From Pseudovirgaria hyperparasitica (Eukaryota), in the NCBI GenBank assembly GCA_010093815.1, contig ML996568.1: a stretch of 64,000 bases of DNA; one strand, given 5' to 3'. Below the pieces are notes generated by a model that ran no database searches, was not told where the DNA came from, and saw only the letters and a list, made by a program, of their open reading frames with translations. Made by a program: the position numbers and the translations under genes. The first letter of the stretch is position 1. The number at the start of each line of letters is the position of its first letter. Below, piece by piece: positions 1 through 44,440 of the stretch.

Positions 1-266
1 AAATAATACTAGCTATAAAGATATATATAATAGTCTAGTATATTATAATATTCTAAATACGTCTATTATAGAACCAAAGTCTTATAAAGAGGTATTATTA
101 CACCCTAATAAGAACCTCTACTTAGAAGCTATGAAAGTAGAGGTAGATACTCTTATTAAAAATAATACCTAGGATTTAGTCTTTAATAATAAAGAAATAA
201 AGCCTATTAAAGGTCGATAGGTATTAAAGACTAAACTAAAACTAGACGGTTCTATAGATAAATATA
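1..266 (+). mobile_element. Ty1/Copia reverse transcriptase fragment (RIP-inactivated), 5' part
   Basis: From 71 it translates EPKSYKEVLLHPNKNLYLEAMKVEVDTLIKNNT*DLV...KPIKGR*VLKTKLKLDGSIDKY, the N-terminal Copia RT (RVT_2) signature with W->stop changes. Confidence 0.9.
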
Positions 267-3200
267 GGAAACTTCTTTTACATCCCCAAGAGGCCAACTT
301 GGTCCATTCGGGGTAATATAGCGAGATACACGCCTTAATCGATAGAGTATACCGAGTATACCAACTACTACTATACGCACGTACGTGTAGCGTCGAAACC
401 AAGACGTTATCGCCGTGTAAAGATATATATATACCCTCTTAAAATCCTTATAGAGATAGAGGCACGGACTATACTACTAGAATACTAATACGCTAACCCC
501 CTTTTATTAGTTAAGGGTAGCCCTTAACTAATAAATATAGCGGCCTTAGGTACCGATATACCCCGGTATATACCGGATATACCTCTACCGGTATAATAGA
601 AAAGGCCATATAGCGACATTACTAAGGGTAGCTATATACCTATCTAAAACGTAGAACATATCTAAAGGCGCACGCTACTATAGATAGACGGAATAAAGGG
701 GACCCTAAGAGAGGAAACCCTTCTAGATTATATTAACTACTAGGTAGTATATATAGAGAAGGAAGCCGAAGAGGGCTAGAAGACCCTCCTATATATATTC
801 TAGGACCTTATCCGGAATCTAAAGGGAATTATAGAGGAGGAGAAGAAGATATAACTAGGAGGACCGGAGGATAGACTTAACCGAATAGAGGCTAGCCTAC
901 GTAGAATCTAGGAGGAACTTACTTAAGGTAAGCGCCCTAGTATATAGATATAAATAGTAGTAATACTAGAGGCTATACTACGGGCCCCCCGGACCGGCGA
1001 CGTGGTATATAGTATATACGTCGTAATCTAGGATAAGAACACCCTAGTATAGGTCTAGTAAGTATCTCTAAAGAATATAGTAAGTAAGATTAACGAATAA
1101 AAGGGAATATAGTTAAATATTATTACCGCTAAACTCACGCTAGAAGGAGTAGTACTTACTATAATAACGAATATCGCGTAGTAGACTATCTCGCGCGATC
1201 TAAACGCGATTAGTAGTATCTTTCTAGGCGCCTCTATTAGGGCGGCTATATACCCGATATAGGTATACTCTATACCTATAAGCGGATAGATTATTAAAGA
1301 AGAGGATATTACGCGGATAGAATAGTTAAACGAGCGAAAATACCTAGGGATTAAGATTATAAGAGTATAGTAGAAGAATATATAAGGGATTAAAACTAGA
1401 TTAAAGGTATACTCTACTATAATAGTAGAGCTTAAGGACCCCGCCCTCGCGTATTAAATTATATAAGAGGGATTTCTAGCGGAAGGGGAGCTTCTTATAG
1501 CGGAACCATAGGATAGAGTATAGGCGATAATATAGTACTTTAACTATTAGGGATACGGGTATACGGTATAGCGGTACTTCTAAAAGACTAGATATAGATA
1601 GTATTAATAAGAATATAGTACCTAGAAGTACCTCTACGGGATATAAGGAGAGGGCTAGAGGGATAGGGATATAGCAAAGTACTCTAACTATAACGGTAAG
1701 TACTCGTCGTAGTCGACTACGTGCGCGAAACGTAAATAGGTTACTAAATATATCTACTTAATCCGGATAAAGGGAGTAAGGTAGCTATAAATAATGCGAC
1801 CTACTACCGTTCCTCTCTTTACTATAATACTACTACTATAGACTACCTCCTTACGAGGAAGCGGTTAGAAATAGTAAACTATCCCGAGAAAGCTAATAAT
1901 AGAACGGCCCTAAGGAATTACTAAGGCCGCCGCTATACGAGGATAGTCGCGTCTTAGAGGAATAAATATATAGGCCTATATATTCCCTAGCACCTAATAA
2001 GAGACTAAGATATACTTCTAATTATATAGGTAAACGTATAGTATAAACGTAAGAACTAGGCGATACTCCTTAAGGAGACCGGAGCTATAATACTCGCTAT
2101 ATAGGAGCTATATAAATACTACTAGATAAATAAACTAATAATACACCTAGAATATTATATAATATACCCCCTAGGACCGGAGAGGAGAGTCCTCTTCTAT
2201 GTCCATAAGTCTATCCTACTCTTATTATAGTTATATACTAAATGGGATAACCTCCGGATAATACTACACCTCTAGACGAATATTAGACCTCTCTATATAT
2301 ATAATATATATAATTAGAACTAATCGCTTTAGGTAGATAATATACTTAAGGGCACTACCGAGCTAGAATAACATATCCTTCTAGGAGACTTTAACCTCTA
2401 TTATAGCTAGTAGGGTAGACTAACCGTTACCTACGAAGAGCTTCGAGCTAGAGAACTACGCACCTAATACTACTACTTTCTATACCTTCTTATACTAGTA
2501 GAATAGATTACCTAGCGAAAATATAAATAAGATAAGGGCGGATCCATACTCGACCTTACCCTAGCTACTAGACACCTTTATAATAGGACTTAATACTACC
2601 GCCTAAGCCTTATATAGATAGACTCTAACCACGAATATATAGAGACCTTAATAGACGTATCTACCCCTTAAGACTAATAAGGGCGATAGCTATAGAAGGA
2701 TACTAACTAGAAAAAGTACCTAAAGGACCTAGAATCGACGATTCTAGACCCGCCTATAGTCGACGTATCTAATGGCCCGGCCATTAACTAGGCCATGAAT
2801 ATACTCCTATAGGCGTACTAGGGAGTAAGAGATAAACACGTGCCGTACCGAATATATAGACCCCTAGACCCGAAAAGTATACCTTAAGTACGAGAGTATA
2901 GGTAAGAAGTCTAGAGATTATATAGACGCGTATACTATAACCGTACACCTAAAGCATAGGATAAATAGAGAGAGGTAAGAAGATAACGAGATAAAGTCCT
3001 CCGTAACGAGCGACGTAAATAGTAGTATATAGTTACGGATAGATACACACGTAACACTACTAGACTATGGTATATAGTAAAATAGGCCAAAAGTACCGCC
3101 TCCCCGACACCTACACTACTTATACCTCCCCTTATATATTAAGAAAAGACGTACTCTACGAGCCTCGAGAAAATAGGGATCCTATAAGAGGTTATATTCC

Positions 3201-5559
3201 CTCTTCTAGAACCCGTAGACCTATTAGATATTAACGGTACGGAATACCTAGAAGCTATAAGTATCCCTAGGGAAATCACGGACGACGATATACTCGGTAC
3301 TATTAAGATACTCCCGAATAATAAAGCGCCCGGGCTAGATAGAATTCCGAATCAATACCTTAAGAGGACTATATAGGCGACCTTACCGATTATAGGCTAT
3401 ATATTCCGAGCGTGCGCCCGTATAGGATACTACCTATAGAGCTTCTAAACTATATATATGGTTATACTCCTAAAACTAGGGAAGAGTCTAAACACGCTAA
3501 AGGGATAGAGGCCGATCGCCCTCCTCTTCTATCTAGATAAGGTACTAGAAGCTATAATTACTAAGAAGATAAGTATAGTAGTATAGGTATACGGCCTTCT
3601 CCTAGTAAACCAGAAGGCGAAGGTAGAAAGCTCCCTAATCATAGCTATTTAACATATCCTTAAGGTTATCTAGACTATATAGAAATAAGGACGAGTCGTC
3701 ACGCTACTCTCCCTAGACATAGTAGGGGCGTTTAATAAGGTAAACTATATAAGACTTATCTATAACCTCCGGATGAGGCGAATACCTAAGTAGATTATAC
3801 GATTTATATAGTCCTTCCTCGCGTAAAGGACTACTTAAATATATATTCCCGGATACTAAAGCGAATATAAGGAGACGGTATACAGCATCCCGTAAGGGAG
3901 TACTATCTCCCCAATCCTCTTCCTCTTCTTTATAGTAGACCTCCTTTAGAGAATAGAATATATAGAGGTAGTCGGATATACGGACGATATATACCTCCTC
4001 GCGGTCGATAGTAGTACTAGTAGAATATATATACGACTCGAACGAGACCACGAGAAATACGTCTAGTAGGTAAAGCGCTATAGAGTAAAATTCGCACCTA
4101 AAAAATACTAGCTTATATACTTTATTAACCGCTATAGAGGATAGGCTACTAGGAAGGGGGTATGTCGCCCCTAAATCGACGCCTTTATAGAACTACTAGT
4201 ATAGAGTATACGTATACTTAGCGTCATGATTAATAATAAGCTAAAATAGGGACCATAGGTAGTACACGCCGTCTCTAGAGCCCTCTAGATAGAAACTACT
4301 ATATACCGGATTATAGTATCCACGTAGGGAGTAGCCCGGGATAAGGCGAGATAGCTATACGTCTCCCTAGTACGCCTAGCCTTTATATATAGACACGAGT
4401 ACTAGTATACGGCCCTTATATAAGCTCGGCGGGTAAAGCTTAAGTCTATATAAAACTATATACTCCGCCTTATCTCCGGTATATATAAAGCTACTAATAT
4501 AACGCTCCTCCGACGCGAGATAAACGTAATAAGTATATAGGACTTCTACTAGATATAGAGACTTATATACTTTACTAAATAATAAGTATAAGAACGTAGA
4601 GAAGATAGGGTATATACCTTCGCCGTACTACGTACATGTATCCACGCGTATTACTAGGCCCTCTCTACTATAGAATAAACTTAAGTATAATATAAATACT
4701 ATATAGAGGCGGACTCGAGCTAGACTATATAGGAGGTTCAAAATAACCCGGATACTATCCTAAGCTAATAGAGCCCTAAGGAGCTTAGCCGCGTTATACG
4801 GTCGTAGATCTAGAATAAATAGAGGGAGGTACTTAAAGCCTAGTAGGCCTCCTAATAGAATAGGTATCTAGAATAGATCCGAGGGCCTTAGAAGGAACTA
4901 AGTAAATAGATATATAAAGGGCTAATAAAGGCCTAAGCATCTATACTCCTCTAAGCCCGAATAGGCGCTATAGATCTTCTATATTACCTCTACTAGAGAG
5001 GCGTCCTAGATATATCTCTCTAGTATGAGGACTACGGCCGGAGAGGTATAATATACTACTACCTCGCGACGTGCTCTAGCCTCTATACCCTAAGACAAGC
5101 CCTCATCCGTATAACGAGGACCTCTAATATTACGTAATAGCTTAATAAGTACCCTAAGAACGTCGCCCGATAGATGCTCGTATACCTTCCTCTCCCCTAG
5201 TTCTAGTAGACCCGCGTATATATACTAGAAGAAGCCCGATATATGCCGGAAGAACCCCGGTATACGTTAGAAGAACCCCGGGAGAACCGCGATTATTAGT
5301 TAAGGGTAGCCCTTAACTAATAATCTCCGTACCTATACGTGCTACCTAAGGGTAAACTATTATAATATAGGCTATAGGCCTATAGATAGCCTCTAGGGCT
5401 ATATATATATAAAGAACGAGAGGATAGATAGAGCGTAGTCATAGATATAAGGGAGTTTTTCCTATTCGTAGGTTTCTTCTTATATAGTAGCTTAGACTAG
5501 AGAAGGTATGCGCCTATAGAGTGGTACTCTACCTAGTTTACTAATATTATTATTATTAT
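267..5559 (+). mobile_element. Full-length Tad1-like non-LTR retrotransposon (LINE copy A), RIP-inactivated
   Basis: ORF1 relic with zinc knuckles (~1535-1730). ORF2 relic with endonuclease LGDFNL (~2381), RT motifs KAPGLD (~3323), RPIALL (~3508), P*GSTISP (~3889) and GYTDD (~3974). (TTA)n tail at ~5545-5560. 14-bp TSD TATAGATAAATATA at 253-266 and 5560-5573. Confidence 0.93.
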
Positions 5560-5623
5560 TATAGATAAATATAAAGCTAGATAGATAGCTAAAGGGTTTC
5601 TTTAAAAATATAATATTAATTAT
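5560..5623 (+). mobile_element. Continuation of the Copia RT, left between two LINE insertions
   Basis: Translates DKYKAR*IAKGFL*KYNINY, matching the Copia KYKARxVAKGFxQxYGxDY motif. It starts with the duplicated TATAGATAAATATA also at 253-266. Confidence 0.88.
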
Positions 5624-8600
5624 AATAATAATAATAATATTATATAACTAGGTAGAGTAGTACTCTATAGGCCTATGCCTCCTCTAGTCTAAGCTACTAT
5701 ATAAGAAGAAACCCCATAGGGAAAAACTTCCTTATATCTATAACTATATCTCGTGGAACCTCTATTTCGTCTTAAGTATATAGCTATAGAGTACGCCTAT
5801 TAGCCTATAGCCTATATTACCGTTATTTTACCCTTAGGTAGCACGTATAGGTACGGAGGTTATTAGTTAAGGGCTACCCTCGACTAATAATCGGGGTTTA
5901 CCTAGGGTTCTTCCGGTATATATCGGGTTACTACTAGCGTATACTAGGTCTCTTCTAGTATATATTTCTAGGTCTACTAGTACTAGAGGAGTAGTAGATA
6001 TATAAGTATCTATTAGAAGATATCCTTAGGGTACTTATTAAGCTATCGTACGATATCTAAAGTCTTCGTAACGTAGATAAGCTATTACCGTTATATATAG
6101 AGGTTAGAGTATATAGCTAGATAGTAGCGTATTATACCTCTCCGGCCATACGCCTTATACCATAGAGAGGTATCAGAAACGCCTCTCTTATAGATATAGT
6201 ATAGAAGTTCTATGGCGCCCGTTTAGGCTTAGATAAGTATAGATACTTAGGCTTTCGTTAGCCCTTTATATATCTATTTACTTAGTTCCTTCTATAGCCC
6301 TCGAATCTACTCTAGATACCTATTCTACTAGAAGGTCTATTAGGTATAGAGTGCCTCTTTCTACTTATCTTAAGTCTATAACTATATATTTTTCACGAGT
6401 TCTTAAAGGCTCTACTAGTCTAGAAGAGCGTCTAGATTATCTCGGACTTCTTATACTACTTAGCTAGAGTCGGCTTCTATTAAGTACCTATACCGTATTT
6501 AATTCTAGCCTATATATAGAAGTGCGTAGTAATATATACTAATTCGTACACGTAGCGCGGTAAAAGTATATTCTACGTTTTCTATACGTTCCTATACTTA
6601 TTATTTAGTAAAGTATACTACCCTCCGTATCTAGTAGAAGTTATATATACTTATAACGTCTATCTCGCGTCGTAGTAGTACCGTGTTAGTAGCTTTATAT
6701 ACGCCTAATATAAGACGGAGTATACGGTTCTATATAGATTCGAGCTTTATTTACCTAGTCTATATAAGGGCCGTATACTAGCACTCGTGTCCGTACATAA
6801 AGGCGGGTCGTGCTATAGATATATATAGCTAGCGTACCTTATCCCGGGCGGTTCCCTACATAGAGACTATAATCTATTATATAGCGGCTTCTATCTAGAG
6901 GGCCCTAGAGACGGCGTATACCACTTATAGTCCCTATTTAAGCTTACTATCTAGTATGACTCCGAGCGCGCGTATACTTTATACTAGTAGTTTATTAAAT
7001 ACGTCGATTCGGGGGCGTCGTTTACCTTCTCTAGTTACCTATTTCCCTTAACGATTAATAAAGTACATGAGCTAGTATTTCTCCGGGGCGAACTTTACTC
7101 CGTAGCGTTTTATCTACTAGAGGCACCCCTTATAGTCCTATTCTAGTCGTCTATATGTTCGGTTAGTATTATTATTAATAGCTAGAATATATATATTATT
7201 AGCGTATCCGACTACCTCTATATACTTTATTTCTTAAAGAAGGTCTACTATAAAGAAGAGGAATAGAATCGGAGAGATAGTGCTCCCTTATAGGATACTA
7301 TATACTATCTCTTTATATTCGCTCTAGTACCTAGAGATATATATCTAAGTTATTCTTCCTATAAGGAATAACTATATAAAGCGTATAATCCATTCTAGTA
7401 TTCGTCTTATCTAGAGGTTATAAATAAGTCTTATATGGTTTACCTTATTAAACGCTCCGGCTATATCGAGAGAGAGGAGCGATACTACCCGTCCCTATTT
7501 CTATACGGCCTAGATAACTTTAATAATATATTAGATAGCTATTATTAGAGAGCTATCTATCTTTACCTTCTAGTTCGGAGGGAGGAGATTATATTCCTAT
7601 ACTATGGTACTTATCTTCTTTACTATCGTAGCCTCTAGTATCTTATCTAGGTAGAAGAGAAGGGCGATTAGTCTCTATCCCTTTAGGGAGTTAGGGCTCT
7701 TTCCTAGTTTTAGAAGTATAATAGTATAGGCGACTTAGAAGCTCTAGGGGTGGTACCCCTACGTGACGTATACTTAGAATATATAAGTAATAAGTAGTAG
7801 GGTTACTTTTATAGTACTTTTTAGGCATCGATTTAGAATTCCATCTAGTCTAGGTACTTTATTATTTAGAAGTATCTTAATAATATTAAGTATATCCTCC
7901 TCTGTAACTTCTTCGGGGATATCTACCGCGTATAGATATTCGGCGCCGTGAACGTCTAATAGGTCTACTAGTTCCGGGAGAGGGAACATGGCCTCCCGTA
8001 GAGCCTTAGTTTTCTTAAGGCTCGTAGAGTATATTCTCCCCTAATATATTAGGGGAGGTATAAGTGGCGGGGGTGTCGGAGTATCTACGCCCTTAGCCTA
8101 TTTTACTATACGCCATAGCTCTATTACGTATTATATCTATTAACTAGTAATTATACGCTACTATTTACGCCTTTTATTATAGAGGACTTTATTACGTTAT
8201 TATATCGCTTTCTTCTATTCTTTCTACGACTCGGGTATTCTTATATAGTATACGCGTGTATATAGCCTTCGGGCGTCTTATCTACTTTTCTATACTTAAG
8301 GAATTCTCTTTACTTCCGGGGGCTAGTATATTTAGTATAGTACGTGTTTATTTCTTATATTCTAGTATATTTATAGGAGTATCTATACGGCCTAGTCTAT
8401 GGCTAGGTCGTTAGATATATTAACTATAGAGGGATCTAGGATTACCGATTCTAGGTCCTTTAGGTACTTTTCCTAGTCGGTGTCCTTCTATATCTATTAT
8501 CCCCGTTATTTATTCGGGGTATATACGTTTATTACGGTTTCTATATATTTATAGTTAGAATCCGTCTATACCTAGCCTAGGCGGTAGTATTAGATCTAGT

Positions 8601-10091
8601 AACTAATATACTCCGTAGTAAAGGTAAGGTTAAGCGTGGACCCGTCTTTGTCCTATTTATGTTTTTTCTATATAACTTATTCTATAGGTATAAGTAGGTA
8701 TAGAAAGTCGTGGTAGCGGGTACGTAGTTCCCTTACTCTAAGTTCTTCTCTAACTATAGCTAGGCCTCCCTACTATTAGTAGTAGAGGTTAAAGTCTTCT
8801 AGGAGGATATGTTACCCTAGTTCCGTAGTACCCTCGAGCATCTCGTCTAGTATAAGTATATGTTATTAGTTATATATATTATATATATATAGGGGGCCTA
8901 TATCTATTTATAGGTATAGTATTATTCTAAGGTTATCGCGCTTAGTATACGACTATAATAAGAGTAGTATTAACCTATAAATATAGAAGAGGACTCGTCT
9001 TCCTAGTCCTAGAGGGTATATAGTATAGTATCCGGGGTATATAGTTGGTTTACTCGTCTAGTAGTATTTATAGGGTTCCTAGATAGTAAGTATTATAGCC
9101 CCGGTCTCTTCGAGGAGCGTCGCCTAGTTCTCTCTTTTATATTATATATTTACCTATATAATTCAGAGTATATTCTAGTCCCTTATTAGATACTAGGGAG
9201 TATATATATCTATATACTTATTCCTTAGAGGCGCGACTATCCTTACGCGGTAGCGGCTTTAACTATGCCTTTTAGTCGTCCTATCGTCTTCGGGATAGTC
9301 TACTATTCTACCTAATTATCTTCCGGAGGGGAGGTTAGGGGTATTATAAAGGAAGGGCCCGTAGTAGGTGTTATATTCTATAACTATCTTGCGTCTCTCG
9401 CTTTTATCATATAAATATATTCTATAACCTATTTATATTTTATACACGTTAACGACTACGACGGGTATTTCCTATCGTAGTTTAAATACTATACTATATC
9501 TCTATTTCTTAGTCTATCTCCTCGTGGTTCATAAGGGCACTCCTAGATAGCGTGGTCTCTACGGTACTATCCGCACTTAGTCTTCTATAAGTACCTTTAT
9601 ATAGTATGTCCATACCCTTAATAGTTAAAGTACTATATTATTATCTATACCCTATTCTATGGCTCGGCTATAAGGAGCTCTCCTTCTACTAGGAATCCCT
9701 TCTATATAATATATTATATAAGGGCGGGGTCTCGGAGCTCTATAATTATAGTAGAGTATTTTTTCGCCGTCGTCTTAATCGCCTATAGATTCTTCTACTA
9801 TACTTTTACGATCTTAATCCCTAGGTATTTTCGCGCGTTAGATTATTCTATATATATAATATCCCCTACTCCGATAGCCTATCCCCGTACGGGTACTACG
9901 TGTACTATAATCTAGTATATAGCTACTCTAATAGACGCGCCGGGGAAGATACTATCTATCGCGTTCGGATCTTACGAGATGTTTTACTACGTAGTATTCG
10001 TTATGGTAGTAAGTACTACCCTACCTAGCGTAACTTTAGTAGCCACGACGCTCGACCACATTCCTTTCTATTTATTAATCTTATTTATAAT
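5624..10091 (-). mobile_element. Tad1-like LINE copy B (second subfamily), 5' end lost, RIP-inactivated
   Basis: Reverse-complement homolog of copy A with an (AAT)n tail at ~5624-5640. Nearly colinear with copy C (20520 onward). Ends inside ORF1 where an LTR begins at 10092. Confidence 0.92.
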
Positions 10092-10583
10092 TGTAAACTT
10101 AACCTCTACTATATCTAATAAGTTTATATAAGGTATTTCCTTATTAGGAATAGCTTAATATTAGTAATCGATATTACTAATATTATCTNNNNNNNNNNNN
10201 NNNNNNNNNNNNNNNNNNNNNNNNNNNNNNNNNNNNNNNNNNNNNNNNNNNNNNNNNNNNNNNNNNNNNNNNNNNNNNNNNNNNNNNNNNNNNNNNNNNN
10301 NNNNNNNNNNNNNNNNNNNNNNNNNNNNNNNNNNNNNNNNNNNNNNNNCTAGAATGTATAAGGAGGAATATATAAGGAACGGTCTCTCTATGTATTTAGT
10401 TCTCTCTCTATCTAGTCTTTACTTTAAGAATTATACTATATTCTTATTATCTTTAAGCTATACTCCGCCGATCCGTTTATTATATAATAGTCTATTACGG
10501 CTAGATTCTATTATATAACTCTATTTAGATATATATTCCTTATATAAGGAATATTATATATCTATTTATACCTGCCCTTTTTA
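10092..10583. mobile_element. LTR of a family distinct from the adjacent Gypsy, spanning an N gap
   Basis: Both sides of the gap (10092-10188 and 10349-10583) are reverse complements of the two ends of the element at 35052-35623. Termini are TG...CA-type (TGTAAAC / CCCTTTTTA after RIP). Confidence 0.8.
10189..10348. other. Assembly gap (N run)
   Basis: Run of N. Confidence 1.
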
Positions 10584-13500
10584 TAACCTTTACTATATAG
10601 CCTAATCTATAGAGATACCTTCTCTATTCCTTAAGGTATTTAATAATAGTATAGAGTTCTTTTTTATAGATTAGCTAGTTTATTTCTAACCCTTAGAATT
10701 TTTAGGAGTAAAATACTATAGAGTATCTTTTCCCTTATTTATCTATCTAGGTTAACTACCCTCTAATAGTAAATTCTAATATATCTATCTTAACTTCGTA
10801 GAGTTTTTCTATTTAGTATATCTTTAATACGGGTTTAGTTATAATAGACTCTTTTAACTATTAAAATACTTATTCTTACTTTAGTTTCTATTTAAATATT
10901 ATATTTTTCTTTATAAGCTTATATAGTAGGGCCGTTTTTATAGAATAGTTATATATAAATTTTCTATAAAAGTTCGTGAATCTAGTAAATCCTTAGATTT
11001 CCTTAACTATCTTAGGTTACTTCTAGTTTTTAATAGCCTTAATTTTCTTTAGGTCTATTTATATTTCTCTAGATATAATCTTAAATTCTAAAAATATAAC
11101 TTTCTATATATAGAAGATACTCTTCTTTAACTCTACTAGTAGATTTACTATCTATAATTTCTAAAGTACCTTATATACGTGTTCTCTATACTCCGATAGA
11201 TTTCTTAAATAAATTAATATATTATCTAGGTAGACTATTATAAAGTAGTCGAGGTATTCTCTTAGTATATTATTAATTAGTACTTAGAATATAGCTAGTA
11301 TATTAGTTAGTCTAAATAGTATTACTAGATATTTATAGTAGCCGTATTAAGTCTAAAAAGCTATTTTCTATTTATCTCCTTCTACTATATATACGAGGTT
11401 ATAGACTTCTTATAAGTCTATTATAGTAAAGTACTAAGCTTCCACGAGTTAGTTCTATAATTTATTAATTTAGAGTAAAGGATATCTATTTTTAATAGTA
11501 ATATTATTTAAGTATTAATAGTCTATATAGGGTCGTTCGCTCCTATCCTTTTTTAGTATAAAGAGTATTAGATATTCTATAGGTGATTTAGAGAGTTAGA
11601 TATATCTCTTTACTTCTATTTTCTTAATATATTATCGCGTTATCTCTAGTTATTTTTTAGTAAGTTAGTATATACTTTTAAATATAGGTACTATTCTAGA
11701 TTAGAGTATTATTATATAATTATATAGGCTATACTTTAGTAATTCTATCTTAAGTTCTTCTTTAAAGATAATATAGTATTAGTAGTATTCCTTTAGTACG
11801 AGTGCGTTATTTATTTTTTAAATCTATTTATCTATAGACGTGCCTTATTATACTATATATTTCTTACGTAAGGGTCTACTCTTTATATTACCTTACTTAT
11901 TATTAAGCTTCTAAATATAGTAGATAGACTTTCTAGTTATTAGCGCCTTTATAGATTTATTAATCTCTACTTCTTCTTTAATAGTTTCTAAGGGTCTTAA
12001 TATTCTCTAGGGTATAATTTCCTTAGTTTTCTAGTTAATTATAGGGTTAACTTCTTTAAGCTATAGTATTCCTAGAATTAAGTTATATTATCCTAGTTCC
12101 GCTATATCTAGTTATAATTATTAGTATTCTACTATTAAGACTAAATCTAGAGGTTCTATTTCTAAGTATACTATCCCGTTAGTATATTCTATATTAAGTT
12201 CTTTAAACGTGGATAGCTTATATAGTTCTTCTTTACTATTATAGGGTATTTTTAGTTTATCTACTATAGTTAGAGAGATAAAATTAGACTATACTCTACT
12301 ATTAATTAGTACCTTAATAGAGTATTTTTAATAGAGCTAAATTTTAAGAGATATTTGTATTTCGTCGTCTAAGCTACTAATAGATATAAGAGATTTTTTT
12401 TAGCTTAGCTATTTCTCTTAGTATATCTAGCCTTCCTAGTTTTTTCGTAGCTTACTAAGTTCTTATTCTGTTTCTTATATAAGTTAGATTATAGATTAAA
12501 CTTATTTCTTAATTTCGCCTAAGTCTACTTAAAGATTATACTATATAATAGCCTTAGATATTAAATAAGTTTAGCACGTAACGTCTAGACATTAGATATA
12601 TTAGTTCTCCGGGTAAATTTTATTTTCTATCTATTTTAATATAAAGTAGTTTTTATTAGCTTCCTTAGTAATTATTTTATACTATTATATATCTTCGTCT
12701 CTAAAGGCTTTTAGAATTACTTAGTTTTAATACTATTATAGAAACTATTTCTAGGTTCGCTTCTTATAGAGATAGCGAAGATAATTATTATAGATATAAG
12801 TAATCTAGAAAGTCTTACCGTGTTCCTTATGATAGGGTGAAATAAGTTAGTTATCTTCTAATTAGATTTCCGCGCCTCTTCTAGATAGATCTCTATTATT
12901 CTTATCTATATACTTTCTATAGTAATAGATAATATAGTAAGTAATAGGGTCTTATATTATTATTAACTTATTATATAGTTCCTCTATAGTAAGGGTTTCT
13001 TCCTTACTATTCTCTTCTATAGTACTTTCTTTAATTATTACTTCTTTAGATACTATTTCTTTAGTTAGTTTAGATCTTCTTATTACTTCTAAGTATTTCT
13101 ATAGTTCTACTTTTTTATAAAGCGATAGGGGTTATTTACTAGCTATTAAGGCGTTTCTTTTCTTTAGATACTAATCTATACTATCTTTCTCTAACTTATA
13201 TATAAAATAGAGGTTATTAGTATAACTAGTCTATAATATAGCTACGTAAGGTACTTCTTCCTTTTCTATAGTAAAGTTCCCTTATCTTAGTACCGGGTCT
13301 TTAATCTAATTTTTCTTATTCTTATTTTTCGGGTATTTACGTGCGTAGTATCCCTTTTCCTTATAGTAGAGATACTTATCTTTCTTCTTTAGTTACTTCT
13401 TTTCTTTATTAGATAGATATTTTATCTATAAGGCGCTAAGTTCTATAGATACGGGTCCGTTATAGAATCTCTTATATAAGTAGTTTAGGGCTTTATTAAT

Positions 13501-14046: not shown

Positions 14047-14371
14047 NNNNNNNNNNNNNNNNNNNNNNNNNNNNNNNNNNNNNNNNNNNNNNNNNNNNNN
14101 NNNNNNNNNNNNNNNNNNNNNNNNNNNNNNNNNNNNNNNNNNNNNNNNNNNNNNNNNNNNNNNNNNNNNNNNNNNNNNNNNNNNNNNNNNNNNNNNNNNN
14201 NNNNNNNNNNNNNNNNNNNNNNNNNNNNNNNNNNNNNNNNNNNNNNNNNNNNNNNNNNNNNNNNNNNNNNNNNNNNNNNNNNNNNNNNNNNNNNNNNNNN
14301 NNNNNNNNNNNNNNNNNNNNNNNNNNNNNNNNNNNNNNNNNNNNNNNNNNNNNNNNNNNNNNNNNNNNNNN
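14047..14371. other. Assembly gap (N run) with duplicated flanks
   Basis: Run of N. The ~87 bp before the gap are repeated directly after it. Confidence 1.
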
Positions 14372-15774: not shown

Positions 15775-15784
15775 NNNNNNNNNN
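15775..15784. other. Assembly gap (N run) with duplicated flanks
   Basis: Run of N. The ~95 bp before the gap are repeated directly after it. Confidence 1.
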
Positions 15785-19849: not shown

Positions 19850-22800
19850 TCTAATCTCCTTAACTTTAGTAATCTCTCTACTATCTCTATCTTATCTAAA
19901 CTTATCTAAATCTACTATAACTCTCTATTAGAGCGTCTTATTAATATAATACCTATCTATAGCGTGTTTAAAGAAGCGTAGAGTCTACTAATTAGTATAA
20001 CTATAGATAGTTAAGAAAGTCTTTAAAGGTTTAAGATTACTAATATATCTAAGTATACTATCTATAAATCTACGCCTTTATTACTATCTATATAAGCTTA
20101 ATAGAGTTAAAGTTAGAAGAGTATAGTAGTATATATTATATAATATAGCTAGTACTAAGGATAAGTAGCTTAATTTATTAGTTTATATAAAGGGCGAGAT
20201 TATCTATAATAATTATTATTATATACCTAGGGTATTTTGCCTTAAGGGTAGATAGTAAGTATATCTCTTACTAAGTATAGAACTCTTCTACTAAGAAGTA
20301 ACCTTTCTTTATCTAATAGTAGATAAATCTATTAACTATAATAGTACTATAGGTACTATATATTAGTCCTTAATTAAGTATACTAAACTTAGTTAGAGTC
20401 TATCTCTTTAGTACTCTATCTCGATATCTCTATCTAATTTTCTTATTAAATATAACCTTATCTAAGAATATATAAGAGTCTACTAGTAGCTCTATAATAT
20501 TCTTAAGATATAAAGTATAATAATAATAATAATAATATTATATAACTAGATAGAGTAGTACTCTACAGGCCTATGCCTCCTCTAGTCTAAGCTACTATAT
20601 AAGAAGAAACCCTATAGGGAAAAACTTCCTTATATCTATAACTATATCTTATTAAACCTTTATTTCGTCTTAAGTATATAGCTATAGGGTACGCCTATTA
20701 GCCTATAGCCTATATTACCGTTATTTTACCCTTAGATAGCACGTATAGGTGCGGAGGTTATTAGTTAAGGGCTACCCTTAACTAATAATCGGGGTTCTCC
20801 TAGGGTTCTTCCGGTATATATCGGGTTACTACCGGTATATACCGGGTCTCTTCCGGCATATATTTCCGGGTCTACTAGTACTAGAGGAGTAGTAGATATA
20901 TAAGTATCTATCGGGAGACGTCCTTAGAGTACTTATTAAGCTATTATACGATATCTAAAGTCTTCGTGACGTAGATAAGCTATTACTATTATATATAGAG
21001 GTTAGGGTATATAGCTAGATAGTAGCGTATTATACCTCTCCGGCCGCACGCCTTATACTATAGAGACACGTCGGGAACGCCTCTCTTATAGAGATAGTAT
21101 AGGAGTCCTATAGCGCCCATTCGGGCTTAGATAAGTATAGATACTTAGGCTTTCGTTAGCCCTTTATATATCTATTTACTCGGTTCCTTCTATGGCCCTC
21201 GAATCTACTCTAGGTACCTATTCTACTAGGAGGTCTAGTAGGTACGGAGTGCCTCTTTCTACTTATCTTAAGTCTACAACCATATATTTTTCACGAGTTC
21301 TTAAAGGCTCTACTAGTCTAGAAGAGCGTCCGGGTTATCTCGGACTTCTTATACTACTTAGCTAGAGTCGGCTTCTATTAAGTACCTATACTATATTCGA
21401 TTCCGGCCTATATATAGGAGTGCGCGGTAATATATACTAATTCGTGCACGTAGCGCGGCGAAAGTATATTCTACGTTTTCTATGCGTTCCTATACTTATT
21501 ATTTAGTAAAGTATACTACCCTCTATATCTAGTAGAAGTTATATATACTTATGACGCCTATCTCGCGTCGTAGTAGTACCGTGTTAGTAGCTTTATATAC
21601 GCCTAATATAAGACGGAGTATACGGTTCTATATAGATTCGAGCTTTATTCGCCTAGTCTATATAAGGGCCGTATACTAGTACTCGTGTCCGTATATAAAG
21701 GCGGGTCGTACTATAGATATATATAGCTAGTATACCTTATCCCGGGCGGTTCCCTACGTAGAGGCTATAATCTATTATATAGCGGCTTCTACCTAGAGGG
21801 CCCTAGAGACGGCGTATACCACTTATGGTCCCTATTTAAGCTTACTATCTAGTATAACTCCGAGCGCGCGTATACTTTATACTAGTAGTTTATTAAATGC
21901 GTCGATTTAGGGGCGTCGTTCGCCTTCCCTAGTTACCCATTCCCCTTAATAATTAATAAAGTACATAAGCTAGTATTTCTCTAGAGCGAACTTTACTCTA
22001 TGGCGTTTTACCTACTAGAGGTACCTCTCATAGTTCTATTCTAGTCTTCTATATATTCGGTTAGTATTATTATTAATAGCTAGGAGGTATGTATTATCGG
22101 CGTATCCGACTATCTCTATATACTTTATTTCTTAAAGAAGGTCTACTATAAAGAAGAGGAATAGGATTAGAGAGATAGTGCTCCCTTATAGGATGCTATA
22201 TACCGTCTCTTTATATTCGCTCTAGTATCTAGGGATATATATCTAAGTTATTCTTTCTATAAGGAATAACTATATAAAGCGTGTAATCTATTCTAGTATT
22301 CGTCTTATCCGGAGGTTATAAATAAGTCTTATATAGTTTACCTTATTAAACGCTCCGGCCATATCGAGGGAGAGAAGCGATACCACCCGTCCCTACTTCC
22401 ATGCGGCCTAGATAACTTTAATAATATATTAGATAGCTATTATTAGGGAGCTATCTATCTTTACCTTCTAGTTCGGAGGGAGAAGATTATATTTCTATAC
22501 CGCGGTACTTATCTTCTTTACTATTATAGCCTCTAGTATCTTATCTAGATAGAAGAGAAGGGTAATTAGTCTCTATCCCTTTAGGGAGTTAGAGCTCTTT
22601 TCTAGTTTCGGGAGTATAATAGTATAGGCGACTTAGAAGTACTAGGGGTGGTACCCCTACGTGACGCATGCTTAGAATATACGAGTAATAAGCGGTAGAG
22701 TCGCCTTTATAGTTCTTTTTAGGCATCGATTTAGAATTCCATCTAGTCCGAGTACTTTATCATTTAGAAGTGTCTTAATAATATTAAGTATATCCTCCTC

Positions 22801-25800
22801 CGTAACTTCTTCGGGGATATCTACCGTATATAGGTATTTAGCGTCGTAAACGTCTAATAGGTCTACTAGTTCCGGGAGAGGGAATATGGCCTCCCGTAGG
22901 GCCTTAGTTTTCTTAAGGCTTATAGAGTATATTCTCCTCTAATATATTAGGGGAGGTATAAGTGGCGGGGGAGTCGGAGTATCTACGCCCTTAGCCCATT
23001 TCGCCATGCGCTATAGCCCTATTACGTATCGTGTCTATTAACTAGTAATTATACGCTACTATTTACGCCTTTCGTTACGGAGAACTTTATCGCGTTATTA
23101 TATTACTTCCTTCTATTCTTCTTACGACTCGGGTATTCTCGTACGGTATACACGTCTATATAGCCTTCGGGCGTCTTATCTACTTTCCTATACTTAAGGA
23201 ATCCCCTTTACTTCTAGGGGCCGGTATATTCGGTATAGTACGTATTTATTTCTCGTATTCTAGTATATTTATAGGAGTATCTATACGGCCTAGTCTATAG
23301 CTAGGTTATTAGATATATCGACTATAGAGAGATCTAGGATCGCCGATTCCAGGTCCTTTAGGTACTTTTCCTAGTTAGTATCCTTCTATATCTATTATCC
23401 CCGTTATTTATTCGGGGTATACACGTTTATTATAGTTTCTATATATTTATAGTCGGAATCTATCTATACCTAGCCTAGGCGGTAGTATTAGATCCGGTAA
23501 CTAATATACTCCGTAGCGAAGGTAAGGTTAAGCGTAGACCCGTCTTTATTCTATTTATGTTTTTTCTATATAACTTATCCTATAGGTGTAAGTAGATATA
23601 GAAAGTCGTGGTAGCGGGTACGTAGTTCCCTCGCTCTAAGTTCTTCCCTAACTATGGCTAGGCCTCCCTACTATTAGTAGTAGAGGTTAAAGTCTTCTAG
23701 GAGGATGTGTTACTCTAGTTCCGTGGTACCCTCGAGCATCTCGTCTAGTATAAGTATACGTTATTAGTTATATATATTATATATATATAGGGGGCCTATA
23801 TCTATTTATAGGTGTAGTATTATCCTAAGGTTATCGCGCTCGGTATATAACTATAATAAGAGTAGTATTAACCTATGAATATAGAAGAGGACTCATCTTT
23901 CTAGTCCTAGAGGGTGTATAGTATAGTATCCGGGGTGTATGGTTGGTTTACTCGTCTAGTAGTATTTATAGGGTTCCTAGATAGTAAGTATTATAGCCCC
24001 GGTCTCTTTAAGGAGCGTTACCTAGTTCTCTCTTTTATATTATATATTTATCTATATAATTCGGAGTATATTCTAGTCCCTCATTAGATACTAGGGAGTA
24101 TATATATCTATATACTTATTCCTTAGAGGCGCGACTATCCTCACGCGGTAGCGGCTTTAACTATACCTTTTAGTCGTCCTATTATCTTCGGGATAATCTA
24201 CTATTCTACCTAACTACCTTCCGGAGGGGAGGTTAGGGGTGTTATAAAGAAAGGGCCCGAGGTAGGTATTATATTCTATAACTATCTCGTGTCTCTCGCT
24301 TTTATCGTACGAATGTATTCTATAACCTATTTACGTTTTATATATATTAACGACTATAACGGGTGTTTCCCGTCGTAGTTTAAACACTATACTATGTCTC
24401 TATTTCTTAGCCTATCTCCTCGCGGTTTATAAGGGTACTTCTAGATAGCGTGGTCCCTACGGTACTATCCGCACTTAGTCTTCTATAAGTACCTTTATAT
24501 AGTATATCTATACCCTTAGTAGTTAAAGCACTATATTATTATCTATACTCTATTCTATGGCTCGGCTATAAGGAGCTCTCCTTCTACTAGGAATCTCTTC
24601 TATATAATATATTATATAAGGGCGGGGTCTTGGAGCTCTATAATTATAGTAGAGTGTTTTTTCGCCGTCGTCTTAATCGCCTATAGGTTCTTCTACCACG
24701 CTTTTATAATCTTAATCCCTAGGTATTTTCGCGTGTTAGATTATTCTATACGCGTAATATCCTCTACTCCGATAGCCTATCCCCGTATAGATACTAAGTA
24801 TATCTATATCGGGTATATGGCCGCCCTAATAGAGGCGCCTAGGAAGATACTACTAATCGCGTTTAGATCGCGCGAGATAGTCTACTACGCGATATTTATT
24901 ATCGTGGTAAGTACTACTCCTCCTAGCGTGAGTTTAGCGGTAATAATATTTAACTATATTCCCTTTTATTTATTAATCTTACTTACTATGTCCTTTAGGG
25001 ATGCTCGCTAGACCTATACTAGGGTATCCTTATCCTAGATTACGACGTGTATACTATACGCTACGTCGCCGGTCCGGGAGGCCCGTAGTATAGCTTCTAG
25101 TATTACTACTATTTATACCTATATACTAGGGCGCTTACCTTAAGTAAGTTCCTCCTAGATTCTACGTAGGCTAGCCTCTATTTAGTCGAGCCTACCCTCC
25201 GGTCCTCCTAGTTATATCTTCTTCTCCTCCTCTATAATTCCCTTTAGGTTCTAGATAAGGTTCTAGAATATATATAGGAGGGTCTTCTAGCCCTCTCCGG
25301 CTTCCTTCTCTATATATACTATCTAGTAGTTAATATAATCTAGGAGGGTTTCCCCTCTTAGGGTCCCCTTTATTCCGTCTATCTATAGCGGCGTGCGCCT
25401 TTAGGTGTATTCTATGTTTTAGATAGGTGTATAGCTACCCTCGGTAATATTACTATATAGCCTTTTCTATTATACTAGTAGGGGTATATCCGGTATATAC
25501 TAGGGTATATCGGTGCCTAAGGCCGCCATATTTATTAGTTAAGGGCTACCCTTAACTAATAAAAGGGGGTTAGTATATCGGTATTCTAGTAGTGTAGTCC
25601 GTGCCTCTATCTCTATAAGGATTTTAAGAGGGTATATATATATCTTTACACGGCGATAACGTCTTAGTTTCGACGCTGCACGTACGTGCGTGTGGTAGTA
25701 GTTAGTGTACTCGGTATACTCTATCGATTAAGGTATGTATCTCTTTCTAACCCGTATAGAGTTTGTTAGTTTTCAACTAACTCGAGTAAAATATAAGATA

Positions 25801-26300
25801 TAAAGTATATACTATCTCTAAGCGCGTACTACTAATATATTTTAATAGCTTATAATTCTAATCTTACTTAGATAACTCCTTTAATAGAAGCTATTTAGAT
25901 ATAGTAAGGTTAAACTCTTTATATATCTATCTAGCTATCTTATTAAGGAATAGCTAGCTCTTATAAAGTAGTCTCTTAAGTATTTATTATATTATATAAT
26001 TACTTAGTTATTACGGTAGGCCACGGCGCGCTAGTTATAGTTTATTCCTCTATCTATATATCTTAAGATTATATCTTATTCTATAGATAGTAGTCTTACT
26101 AACTTTAGTAATAGTAATAATCTTATTAATAGATATATTATATTATAAGAGAAAGTTAATTTAACTATATATAGAGGTAGAATAAATAGTACTATAGAGT
26201 ACTATATATATATATAAGTAAGTCTAAAATACTATATATTAACTATACTAACTTCTATATATAATATAATATAGTTATAGAGGCTATATAAGTATAGTAT
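19850..26300 (-). mobile_element. Tc1/mariner-IS630 (DDE_3) transposase relic interrupted by LINE copy C; boundaries approximate
   Basis: Minus strand reads FLDKVIFNKK (~20440-20469), IIDNLAL (~20190-20210) and YILLYSSNFNSIKL (~20094-20135), which are RIP versions of FLDE..FNEK, MDN...H and YLPPYSPDFNPIEL. The host sequence resumes after 25809. Confidence 0.75.
20520..25793 (-). mobile_element. Full-length Tad1-like LINE copy C, RIP-inactivated
   Basis: (AAT)n tail at ~20520-20540. Homologous to copies A and B. 16-bp TSD TAAGATATAAAGTATA at 20504-20519 and 25794-25809. Confidence 0.93.
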
Positions 26301-34935: not shown

Positions 34936-35860
34936 CTAAATATAGTATTTTATATTCTATATACTAATATTATTATTTAGATATTCTATCTATAAGATAG
35001 TAGACTCTACGTACTAACTATCTATACTAAAAGAATCGAATCTTAAAGCTATGAAAAGGGCAGGTATAAATAGATATATAATATTCCTTATATAAGGAAT
35101 ATATATCTAAATAGAGTTATATAATAGGATCTAGCCGTAATAGACTACTATTATATAATAAACGGATTAGTAGAGTATAGCTTAAAGATAATAAGAATAT
35201 AGTATAATTCTTAAAGTAAAGACTAGATAGAGAGAGAACTAAATATATAGAGAGACCGTTCCTTATATATTCCTCCTTATATATTCTAGATCCTTCTCTC
35301 AATTAATAATAGGAATCTTCTAGACCTCTAGACATACATATACATTCTATAGCTCTAGTAGTTTCCTTAGAATAGAATAGAGTAGAGTAGAACTCTATAG
35401 AACTTATAGACTCTATAGTAGAATCTAATAGAACTCTATAGAAGTTTATATTTCTAAAGACCTTTAGAAGTTTCTAGAGGGTTCTAGAAACTTCTATAAG
35501 AGTATAGAGTATTTATATATATAAGTAGATAATATTAGTAATATTAATTACTAATATTAAGCTATTTCTAATAAGGAAATACCTTATAGAAACTTATTAG
35601 ATATAGTAGAGGTTAAGTTTATAAAAGCTACTACTTTAAGGGTAGAGTATACTACTTATATACGACTACTATATACATATAGAATTAACTAGTAGACTAC
35701 GTATCTAATACTATCTCTCTATCTTAGAGTCTATATATTATAACTCTTATAGAAGAATAAATATATATCTAATTTTCTATATTAAAGTTAATACTATTAA
35801 TTACTAAGGTCTATATGTAAAAGTAGGAAGAGCTCTACATAGAAAGATAGGAGTGAGAAT
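34936..35860. repeat. Small RIP-mutated island between the mannosidase and eIF5B genes
   Basis: AT/TpA-rich. Flanks are homologous to 26780-26910. Contains a solo LTR. Confidence 0.9.
35052..35623. mobile_element. Solo LTR (~572 bp) with target-site duplication
   Basis: Starts TGAAAAGGG and ends GTTTATA (GTTTACA in the copy at 10092). AAAGCTA is duplicated at 35045-35051 and 35624-35630. The uninterrupted site is visible at 26831-26844. Confidence 0.85.
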
Positions 35861-39200: not shown

Positions 39201-39540
39201 CAACCAAAAAAAAGCAAATCATTCCATTGGGTAGGGTGTATGTATCTCAGTATCCCCAATCTTTATGGCCGCCAGCCAGGCTAACATTCATTCTAGCACG
39301 TCCATCCAGCGCGAGCACAAAGACATTCCCATCGCCCTTAAGGGATCTCCATCCGTTGCCGTCAAGATCGAAGGACCCAATCAGCCTATGTACGGTCGAC
39401 ATATCGAGGAGACGGACCCGGTGTACAGTTCCATTAGTCGGCTGAGTATCGACACGCTCAAGGAGTTCTACCGCGATGAGGTCAAGAAGGAAGAATGGGC
39501 TCTACTAAGAGATTTCAAGCCGCTTTTCGATATCTCGTGA
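36207..39540 (+). CDS. FUN12: Eukaryotic translation initiation factor 5B; 3 exons
   Basis: Charged N-terminus [10 protein letters not shown]. GTPase motifs [24 protein letters not shown] and NKID. C-terminal [13 protein letters not shown]. Introns at ~36657-36709 and 39237-39296. Confidence 0.97.
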
Positions 39541-43938: not shown

Positions 43939-44440
43939 ATCTGCCGGGATATGCGCAGCTGCAAGGAAGTACTGATGGTAATGGTGCAACGGGGATGCTC
44001 AAATGATTGATCGCAAGATGTGTTTAGTGGCTAACGATTACCAATCGATGCGACGACAAGATTCCGCAGTGCGTCGAACGACAGAGCCCGAACAGGTATT
44101 GTAGAGTGCGAATAGAGCTGTATATAGAGCAGACGATGACTTTGTACAGATGCCTGGCTGCGACGATGTGAGAAGTAGAAGTTTAAGGAGAGGATGGATG
44201 CCTTGATGCCTTGTTGGATCGTCCCGTCTCCCTGAGATATAGTGCAGTCTGCCTTTCCCAACATACAAAGACACTGTGTATCTCGAAGCTCCTCGCACGC
44301 TCAAATAGTCGATGAACTTTCTTTCAGACCTCTTCGTCAGGTGTTAAGTCTGTAGATTGCAATTTGGTGCTGAACATTCTCATACAGTCGGTAATATCAA
44401 CACAAGCAGGCGTAGTAGACTTCTCCCAGCTCGACTAAGA

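Follow-up and report, generated by a model that had tools for sequence, protein, structure and literature searches.

A 31-nt hairpin sequence, which we term P1, recurs near both ends of a LINE of the fungus Pseudovirgaria hyperparasitica, and finding one 31-mer at two places of the element that are not homologous is far beyond chance. Its core comprises a 14-nt arm, a TAG loop and a second 14-nt arm. Searching the whole window (the 64,000-nucleotide stretch of contig ML996568.1 analysed here) with up to 3 mismatches allowed, we obtained 5 matches compared with 0 expected (100 shuffles), in keeping with a first-pass annotation that had placed the palindrome in both end regions of the LINE. All five matches fall within LINE copies, and the rest of the window has none. 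We tentatively interpret P1 as a cis-acting RNA stem-loop that is putatively bound by the LINE's own protein (ORF2p and/or ORF1p) at both ends.

The same hairpin lies near both ends of a LINE

The five instances of P1 are distributed over three copies of the element (A, B and C) as follows.

503-535 (core 504-534), + strand: 5' P1 of copy A, 15-bp stem with TAG loop
5291-5325 (core 5293-5323), + strand: 3' P1 of copy A, 16-bp stem
5860-5890 (core), - strand: 3' P1 of copy B, stem interrupted
20758-20788 (core), - strand: 3' P1 of copy C, 14-bp perfect stem
25532-25562 (core), - strand: 5' P1 of copy C, 15-bp perfect stem

The core is exact in four of the five instances and has 2 changes in copy B, where the sense left arm reads TCGA compared with TTAA in the other copies. 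The annotation had described 15-16-bp arms around a 3-nt loop. The loop holds in all five, each time as TAG on the sense strand, so the 5' and 3' hairpins have the same polarity; perfect stems measure 14-16 bp, but that of copy B is interrupted. A single long hairpin is in itself not extraordinary in RIPed DNA: when the RIPed 27 kb were resampled 100 times under a first-order Markov model, 4 resamples contained a perfect stem of at least 14 bp. The distance from P1 to the nearer end of the element is 237 nt (5') and 236 nt (3') in copy A, and 231 and 238 nt, respectively, in copy C.

The copies belong to one APE-type LINE family

267-5559, + strand: LINE copy A, full length and heavily RIP-mutated, with a 14-nt direct repeat on either side
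253-266 (left) and 5560-5573 (right), + strand: target-site duplication of copy A, exact 14-nt repeat
5545-5562, + strand: (ATT)n 3' tail of copy A
2294-2641, + strand: APE-type endonuclease domain of ORF2 (Exo_endo_phos_2, E 5.7e-4, 20.2 bits)
3500-4117, + strand: reverse transcriptase domain of ORF2 (RVT_1, E 5.9e-15, 56 bits)
5616-10039, - strand: LINE copy B, 5'-truncated, beginning at position 1129 of A and tail-to-tail with A
20520-25793, - strand: LINE copy C, full length and chimeric, with target-site duplications at 20504-20519 and 25794-25809 (16 nt)

Copies A, B and C are one family of non-LTR retrotransposons (LINEs) of the APE+RT type. All three end 3' in (ATT)n, and two of the three have target-site duplications (14 nt in A, 16 nt in C). 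Copy A is inserted in a copia-like frame, and the host frame resumes beyond the insertion. As A and C are full length with such duplications, their 5' and 3' P1 both fall within the retrotransposed unit and hence in its RNA. The element has no long terminal repeats; its 5' and 3' ends have 31 nt in common.

Frame 1 of the copy A region (301-5700) contains 175 stop codons. With stops read as X, frame 2 of the + strand of copy A matched RVT_1 at 56 bits (cut-off 29.6) and Exo_endo_phos_2 at 20.2 bits, the latter below the curated cut-off of 27.4. We assign the endonuclease to the APE type despite this score because proteins combining PF14529 or PF03372 with PF00078 align to 96% of the LINE query; the alignment of one such relative (P0144) spans query residues 10-1018. 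P0144, from a 5.85-kb ENA metagenome contig, and P0145, from Logan contigs, count among the close relatives.

The element resembles Tad1-clade LINEs in its fungal host, its APE+RT ORF2, its C-terminal Cys/His motif region, its two-ORF size and its RIP-degraded copies, a likeness that rests on features rather than on RT phylogeny. An RNase H after the RT is usual for this clade; the domain search of the RIPed copy A gave no RNase_H match, and RIP damage may hide one. Among relatives, which bear no clade names, RNase H is mixed, being present in L008, P0006, P0017 and P0019 and absent in others. The ORF1 start of copy A was not located by tblastn with the ORF1s of five relatives, by stop-codon density or by Pfam, so we infer the label 5' UTR; judging by ORF1 lengths in relatives, the 5' hairpin would lie upstream of ORF1.

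P1 and a second palindrome are all that the ends share

A second palindrome, P2 (CCGG-TATATA-CCGG, or CGG-N6-CCG), lies close to P1.

563-576, + strand: P2, 27 nt downstream of the 5' P1 of copy A
5236-5249, + strand: degenerate P2 with 2 mismatches, upstream of the 3' P1 of copy A
5913-5926 in copy B, and 20811-20824 and 20832-20845 in copy C: better copies of P2 than the 3' one of A

A search for P2 with up to 2 mismatches gave 6 matches compared with 0.29 expected, which agrees with the earlier remark that CCGG- and ATATA-containing repeats adjoin the palindrome. At each end of the LINE, P1 has a P2 beside it, on one side in the 5' region and on the other in the 3' region. Together, the P1 core and P2 are everything that the two end regions have in common. 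Wider homology of the P1 flanks was considered and rejected: it beat mononucleotide shuffles but neither first-order Markov nulls nor tiles of the same element, with flank similarity scores of 32-43 and control tiles that reach 41. Similarity between the outer 236-nt segments of the LINE was likewise not above the null.

P1 before RIP

RIP has acted on the LINE copies, as seen in CpA and TpG depletion, TpA excess and a transition bias. Observed/expected ratios in copy A are 0.17 for CA, 0.09 for TG and 2.0 for TA, compared with 1.13-1.19, 1.12-1.18 and 0.74-0.76, respectively, in genic DNA. Copies B and C differ by 365 transitions and 25 transversions.

Un-RIPed sequence was available as contigs from runs X3 and X4, another sample with the same species label, which we read by eye against the window. 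In these contigs P1 stands within GC-rich flanks, and at most 4 of 38 letters differ over 496-533, compared with 7 of the 15 letters just upstream of the P1 region (all C-to-T or G-to-A) and 10 of the 30 letters before 598 (9 of them of the same kind). By this comparison, the P1 core predates RIP, which upholds the view that the palindrome was not created by the process. RIP did add outer pairs: the 15th pair of the 3' P1 of copy A is an A.C mismatch in B and C and is thus RIP-made in A. The fully de-RIPed sequence proposed in the first-pass annotation does not hold up, as it needs 6 changes within 504-533 where the un-RIPed contig has at most 4 in 496-533, and copy B keeps TCGA rather than the proposed TCAA. 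Because the surviving TCGA is self-complementary, full de-RIPing there would leave the symmetry intact.

Conservation between subfamilies

Between copies A and C, transversions amount to 0% in 323-1072 and to 6-10% beyond about 1323. Copy C is, on this pattern, a chimera of two subfamilies, with a recombination junction near 1250-1350 and not at P1. The transversion-free 5' part indicates that both 5' P1 copies come from one subfamily, so, with C chimeric, the 5' P1 has been sampled in one subfamily only. The earlier claim that the palindrome is conserved across two diverged subfamilies is therefore retained for the 3' copy but not for the 5' copies.

5290-5356, + strand: conserved 3' block comprising P1 and 33 nt downstream, a 67-nt run without transversions or indels between subfamilies

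This block is the third-longest transversion-free run between the subfamilies, the two longer ones both being in the RT core, and 5290-5323 is the longest run of exact identity between A and C. The 3' P1 looks conserved between the subfamilies and, by the same comparison, older than their split. A covariation count, made on the five P1 instances only, found 12 of 16 pairs invariant; the lone two-sided change includes a RIP-type change in copy A, and 128 of 500 shuffles score as high.

A putative protein-bound RNA stem-loop

If P1 acts as RNA, the full-length transcript would carry one copy in its 5' leader and another in its 3' UTR, and protein would be loaded at either end of a single RNA through this identical pair of sites. 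The 3' P1 would flag the RNA for target-primed reverse transcription, and the 5' P1 would hold a second protein at the far end, for cis-preference, for full-length completion or for second-strand steps. Several observations are consistent with this tentative reading. Both P1 copies are inside the unit flanked by target-site duplications, the TAG loop has the same polarity throughout, and the core was not made by RIP. Single P1 RNAs fold at -12.7 to -21.9 kcal/mol (z-scores -2.9 to -6.7), and the hairpin is retained in minimum-free-energy folds of the 5' region (267-720) and the 3' region (5200-5562). The longest identical run between subfamilies that otherwise differ by 6-10% transversions coincides with the 3' hairpin.

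Other observations weigh against it. The five instances give no covariation signal, and a bulge-free, perfect 14-bp stem that is identical at both sites is equally typical of a DNA palindrome. A hairpin smaller than P1 sits closer to the 3' tail. The 5' P1 is sampled in one subfamily, and its position upstream of ORF1 is judged from relatives.

There are precedents for such recognition. In the zebrafish stringent-type LINEs ZfL2-1 and ZfL2-2, which like the fungal LINE have a 3' UTR stem-loop and end in a short tandem repeat, the cognate ORF2 protein binds the stem-loop, which is part of the 3' tail, as outlined in PMC4176376. Whereas the stem-loop of stringent-type LINEs is in the 3' tail beside the terminal repeats, the putative stem-loop of the fungal LINE has its core 236 nt upstream of the end with its (ATT)n tail and recurs close to the 5' end, a placement that counts against the RNA reading. 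In R2, the RNA segments involved are large, structured and mutually unlike, and the element combines an endonuclease of the restriction-like type with a fixed target; the fungal LINE differs in its APE-type enzyme and in its single short hairpin, identical at the two ends. Two R2 protein subunits are instructed by RNA segments of the two transcript ends, that from near the 5' end positioning the second subunit, according to the account summarised in PMC2346776.

A more specific proposal, which we regard as distinctly unlikely, is that two P1 hairpins, on either side of the coding region and about 236 nt from the RNA ends, recruit two copies of the LINE's own protein or close the RNA, and thereby couple first- and second-strand integration steps. 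If true, this would be symmetric two-ended recognition in an APE-type LINE; to our knowledge, two-ended recognition has so far been described only for R2, with unlike RNAs. Self-recognition of LINE RNA by APE-type elements and the handling of the 5' end at integration are poorly understood outside a few animal models, and an element family with one small hairpin as the mark of its two ends would lend itself to straightforward mutant tests. Un-RIPed copies seem to be present in the contigs of the second sample, so there may be an intact element to work with.

Alternative explanations

P1 could instead act as double-stranded DNA, a palindrome to which a dimeric host factor binds and which makes up a regulatory module with P2; the module would provide an internal sense promoter or enhancer at the 5' end and an antisense promoter or boundary at the 3' end. 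We consider this unlikely. LINEs require an internal promoter, P1 has perfect dyad symmetry with 14 bp per arm, and the half-sites of CGG-N6-CCG are arranged as those of fungal zinc-cluster dimers. The placement of P2 beside P1 at both ends, on opposite sides, is also what loosely arranged binding sites would give. However, 1 of 7 P2 pairs is an A.C mismatch in the un-RIPed contig, so the symmetry of P2 is partly RIP-made; within the window the motif is restricted to LINE copies; and a symmetric DNA site does not require the same loop polarity at both ends. TRE5-A, a published LINE with a duplicated module, does have a 3' module with antisense promoter activity (PMC3159450).

The same element bears on a further explanation, namely that P1 arose neutrally, or nearly so, by copying of a short piece between the UTRs, for example by template switching during reverse transcription, and looks conserved since it is young or homogenised between the sites. 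In TRE5-A (DRE), a Dictyostelium discoideum non-LTR retrotransposon whose structure is AB-ORF1/ORF2-BC, one module stands in direct orientation in the 5' and 3' untranslated regions, and this duplication seems irrelevant for retrotransposition (PMC3159450). The module is thereby an exception to the premise of the first-pass annotation that LINEs lack a sequence present at either end, and, as the lone published duplicated UTR module in a LINE, it also counts against the RNA stem-loop. The B-module measures 290 bp and overlaps the ORF1 start, with no hairpin mentioned in the introductory account of PMC3159450. In the fungal LINE, by contrast, the shared segment is 31 nt long and a perfect stem-loop, and the host and presumably the clade differ. 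The 31-nt core, present twice each in A and C in direct orientation, is nonetheless a duplicated module of the TRE5-A type, with one copy in what we infer to be the 5' UTR.

The chimeric copy C shows that template switching or recombination occurs in the family, the identity of 31/31 at both sites is as expected from a recent copy, and covariation is absent, all of which favours a neutral origin. On the other hand, the 31 nt shared have their boundary exactly at the stem, with flanks that do not rise above Markov nulls or control tiles; the 3' P1 existed before the two subfamilies separated and belongs to a block that ranks among the top three for conservation in the diverged part; and a duplicated piece that is itself a perfect hairpin is an extra coincidence. 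We give neutral duplication a minor chance, and if it holds, P1 would be a structural oddity of minor importance in a single family of fungal repeats.

Two copies of a palindrome are always mutually complementary, so the 5' and 3' P1 could pair with each other instead of each forming its own hairpin, circularising the RNA or dimerising RNAs and joining the ends for translation, packaging or template switching. The 5'-3' pairing suggested earlier is thermodynamically possible, as the 51-nt segments cofold at -49.1 kcal/mol compared with -40.4 kcal/mol for the separate hairpins (-18.5 plus -21.9). The near-equal distances of P1 from the two ends in A and C would suit such pairing, and the chimeric copy C is compatible with co-packaged RNAs without being proof of them. 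However, local hairpins would form faster, without a long-range search; the junction in copy C is away from P1; and the outer segments hold no further complementarity beyond the null (65 of 500 nulls score as high). We therefore regard inter-site pairing as quite improbable.

That the symmetry is an artefact of RIP on low-complexity DNA is very improbable: RIP made the 15th pair of the 3' P1 of A and one P2 pair, RIPed DNA of the window is rich in 7-11 bp palindromes, and stems of at least 14 bp arise in Markov resamples, but the few differences in the un-RIPed contigs, the same 31-mer at two unrelated sites and the symmetry kept by the TCGA of copy B all argue against it. A self-cleaving hammerhead ribozyme, for which nothing speaks beyond the earlier suggestion that the pre-RIP arm could match the core heptamer, is close to refuted by 0 Rfam matches (E up to 1, 250-5700, both strands; RIP could hide one), by a heptamer fully base-paired within the perfect 14-bp stem rather than at a junction, and by an un-RIPed contig in which no more than 4 of 38 letters can differ.

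Searches in relatives and metagenomes

A search of genome contigs with ORF2 returned six fungal-type LINE contigs within bacterial MAGs. These relatives are distant (27-37% identical to P0001), and several contigs may lack complete ends. With that limit, none of the six has a perfect hairpin of at least 9 bp in its end regions, which argues against the RNA stem-loop, and none has a segment shared between its 5' and 3' ends. The P1 pattern at up to 3 mismatches was absent from the 4 MAGs searched, and the viral contigs searched by ORF2 alignment yielded 0 confirmed loci. A transition-degenerate P1 matched twice in metagenomes, in unrelated bacterial contexts, with 1-2 matches expected by chance. 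A literature search by titles and abstracts gave no paper on this LINE or on a hairpin at both ends of a fungal LINE, and no Tad1-clade element described as bearing such a hairpin at its two ends is known to us. One of the relatives, L008, contains two perfect hairpins of at least 9 bp, both inside ORFs.

Recurrence of the hairpin at both LINE ends

The palindrome that the first-pass annotation had reported at 503-535 forms a perfect hairpin and recurs more often than chance allows: its inner 25 nt, at up to 3 mismatches, occurs five times in the window but never in 100 dinucleotide-preserving shuffles. That observation is correct, and the interpretation placed on it is right in part. The 31-nt core of the hairpin, hereafter P1, comprises a 14-nt arm, a TAG loop and a second 14-nt arm, and is found in three RIP-mutated LINE copies (A, B and C):

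504-534, + strand, 5' P1 core of copy A
5293-5323, + strand, 3' P1 core of copy A
5860-5890, - strand, 3' P1 core of copy B
20758-20788, - strand, 3' P1 core of copy C
25532-25562, - strand, 5' P1 core of copy C

The core is exact in four of the five instances; the exception is copy B, whose left arm reads TCGA instead of TTAA on the sense strand. The sense-strand loop reads TAG in all five. Perfect stems reach 15 bp in both 5' copies, 16 bp in the 3' copy of A and 14 bp in that of C. RNA folds of the five 51-nt segments ranged from -12.7 to -21.9 kcal/mol (z-scores -2.9 to -6.7). One core begins 237 nt from the 5' end of A, and the other stops 236 nt before the 3' end; the corresponding distances in C are 231 and 238 nt. 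This near-equal spacing in A and C may be coincidence.

Between the 5' and 3' regions, the P1 core is the sole similarity detected by blastn (word size 11). Smith-Waterman scores of the P1 flanks lie above simple shuffles; they lose significance once first-order Markov nulls or other tiles from this element serve as the control, so wider homology around the two sites was dropped and is not claimed here. The two outer 236-nt segments of A showed neither similarity nor complementarity above null. A smaller palindrome, P2 (CCGG-TATATA-CCGG), sits 27 nt downstream of the 5' P1, with one or two copies, degenerate to varying extents, upstream of the 3' P1 in A, B and C. Allowing up to 2 mismatches, P2 has six matches where 0.29 would be expected, which bears out the CCGG/ATATA repeats described earlier near P1.

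The carrier element

Repeat finding and blastn identified three copies of one element in the window:

267-5559, + strand, copy A, bounds from the flanking repeat
5616-10039, - strand, copy B, tail-to-tail with A and starting only at A position 1129
20520-25793, - strand, copy C, bounds from the flanking repeat

An exact 14-nt direct repeat (253-266 and 5560-5573) flanks A and a 16-nt direct repeat flanks C, which sets these bounds; the tail, (ATT)n in all three copies, may include the first 3 nt of each flanking repeat. A and C are full length, and both hairpins lie within the unit copied through RNA. A and B were inserted tail-to-tail about 50 nt apart in one RIPed copia-like element (window 1-266, 5560-5615 and beyond 10039), whose reading frame resumes across the insertion of A.

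One frame of 301-5700 contains 175 stops. Translation of + frame 2 of copy A, with stops written as X, matched RVT_1 at 56 bits (cut-off 29.6) and, weakly, Exo_endo_phos_2 at 20.2 bits, below the cut-off of 27.4; ORF2 aligns almost end to end with intact APE+RT proteins of about 1,060-1,100 residues. ORF1 was not located in copy A by Pfam profiles, tblastn with the ORF1s of relatives or stop-codon density. In relatives, ORF1 (435-568 residues) lies directly upstream of ORF2, sizes that would place its start in A at roughly 400-800. On this estimate, the original assignment of the 5' P1 to the 5' UTR is likely.

Conservation between subfamilies

Transversions between A and C amount to 0% over 323-1072, then rise to 2% (1073-1322) and to 6-10% for the remainder, from about 1323; between B and C they stay <1% across the whole shared part. 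These profiles make C a chimera of about 1 kb of A-type 5' sequence and a B-type body. The junction falls near 1250-1350, inside the presumed ORF1. With C chimeric, the 5' P1 is sampled in one subfamily only; the reported conservation across two subfamilies thus stands for the 3' copy, which is sampled in both, and lapses for the 5' copy.

Within the diverged part, the longest run of exact identity between A and C (5290-5323) is the 3' P1, and 5290-5356 (67 nt with no transversions or indels) is the third longest such run, behind two in the RT core. These runs are the best evidence that the 3' P1 and the 33 nt downstream were probably under constraint while the family was alive. Among the 16 P1 pairs, 12 are invariant, and 128 of 500 shuffles reached the covariation score observed over the five instances. 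A further non-coding run, 5471-5502, is a 32-nt identity between the subfamilies. Some 25 nt short of the (ATT)n tail, B and C have a 7-bp hairpin (C sense positions 5179-5193) that is weakened in A. This tail-proximal block or hairpin could be the actual tail-proximal recognition element.

Possible roles of P1

P1 would belong with known kinds of LINE cis-elements. We rank first, tentatively and as somewhat less than an even bet, an RNA stem-loop that would be bound at each RNA end by a protein of the element itself. The transcript contains both P1 copies in one polarity, the two hairpins survive when the entire end regions are folded, conservation of the 3' copy resembles that of a catalytic motif, and there are precedents: two studies describe LINE proteins binding a 3' stem-loop (PMC4176376) and, in R2, RNA from near the 5' end positioning a second subunit (PMC2346776). 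Against such a stem-loop, P1 does not adjoin the tail and is as perfect as a DNA palindrome.

Two other explanations are rather unlikely, and equally so. P1 might serve as double-stranded DNA, bound by a dimeric host factor and forming a promoter-like module jointly with the CGG-N6-CCG palindrome; or it might have arisen by neutral duplication, comparable to the 290-bp B-module of TRE5-A, the 3' copy of which, according to PMC3159450, seems irrelevant for retrotransposition. Pairing of the two P1 copies with each other is more doubtful still; it is favourable on paper (-49.1 versus -40.4 kcal/mol) and consistent with their near-equal distances from the ends.

RIP and ribozyme explanations

It is very improbable that the symmetry of P1 is a RIP artefact. 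The LINE copies carry classic RIP, with CpA saturated and CpG still segregating: observed/expected ratios are 0.17 for CA, 0.09 for TG and 2.0 for TA (about 1.1-1.2 for both CA and TG and 0.75 for TA in genic DNA of the window), and 365 transitions and 25 transversions separate B from C. RIP added symmetry at the edges of P1, the 15th pair of the 3' P1 of A being A-T solely through a T where B and C have C. Palindromes of 7-11 bp are plentiful in RIPed DNA of the window, and when the RIPed 27 kb was resampled 100 times under a Markov model, 4 resamples reached a perfect stem of at least 14.

Contigs of four coded sequencing runs (X1-X4) were compared over window 250-5700. The element is hugely abundant in X1 and X2 (13,831 and 5,397 contig pieces); X3 and X4, from a different sample filed under the same species name, yielded 12 and 3 pieces, GC-rich and apparently un-RIPed. 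The isolates seem to vary widely both in how much of this family they carry and in how far it is RIPed, and the apparent un-RIPed copies in the second isolate would make P1 function testable. An X4 contig ending at 533 has 4 other letters in 38 across 496-533, and in its 15-letter loose end before 496, 7 differ, every one a contig C read as T, or a contig G read as A, in the window; in the 30 letters before 598 of a 4,383-nt contig, 10 differ, 9 of them in the same way (both stretches compared by eye). An 86-nt X3 contig over the 3' P1 (5271-5356) has 12 other letters. The X4 match, set against heavily changed flanks, indicates that P1 is naturally AT-rich, that RIP altered at most 4 letters and that the core predates RIP. 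At 6 changes within 504-533, the fully de-RIPed P1 proposed earlier departs too far to be what the X4 relative carries. One P2 pair that is A-T in the window is an A.C mismatch in the un-RIPed contig, so RIP contributed to the perfection of P2. Because TCGA survives in copy B, TCGA in both P1 arms, with symmetry kept, is one likely older state.

Another repeat family, with inverted copies at 10091-10590 and 35045-35624, has long perfect hairpins of its own:

10156-10185, 13-bp stem
35530-35559, 13-bp stem
35465-35496, 14-bp stem

In the first two, the outer arms are similar to those of P1. N runs in the repeat-rich part (10189-10348, 14047-14371 and 15775-15784) are assembly gaps or masked stretches.

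The hammerhead possibility raised at first is the least credible of all, with no Rfam matches at E up to 1 on either strand of 250-5700 and the candidate heptamer buried inside the P1 helix.

Relatives and host

The carrier family is undescribed, and a literature search of titles and abstracts found no paper on it. Of 1.84 billion representatives, P0144 (E 2.7e-115; 1,061 residues) has the nearest intact ORF2; it comes from a 5.85-kb metagenome contig. Six fungal-type LINE contigs inside bacterial MAGs (27-37% identity to P0001, a related protein) had no perfect hairpin of at least 9 bp in their end regions and nothing common to both ends; given how distant these relatives are, and that several contigs break off close to the ORFs, the absence weighs only lightly against a family-wide P1. 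The contigs (L003-L008), filed under Ponticaulis, Bacteroidetes, Verrucomicrobia and Pedobacter MAGs, hold intact eukaryote-type APE+RT LINEs with ORF1 and are most likely fungal contamination of bacterial bins; L003 contains two different LINEs, head to tail.

An Exo70 exon (52093-53604) matches a Pseudovirgaria hyperparasitica protein at 100% identity, with the next best match at 65%, which makes the host an isolated Dothideomycete lineage; close relatives may simply be unsequenced. The gene-rich half of the window (36710-53607; about 46-51% GC) encodes an eIF5B-like GTPase, a CAP protein, an RNase III with a dsRBD, two lysophospholipase exons and Exo70.
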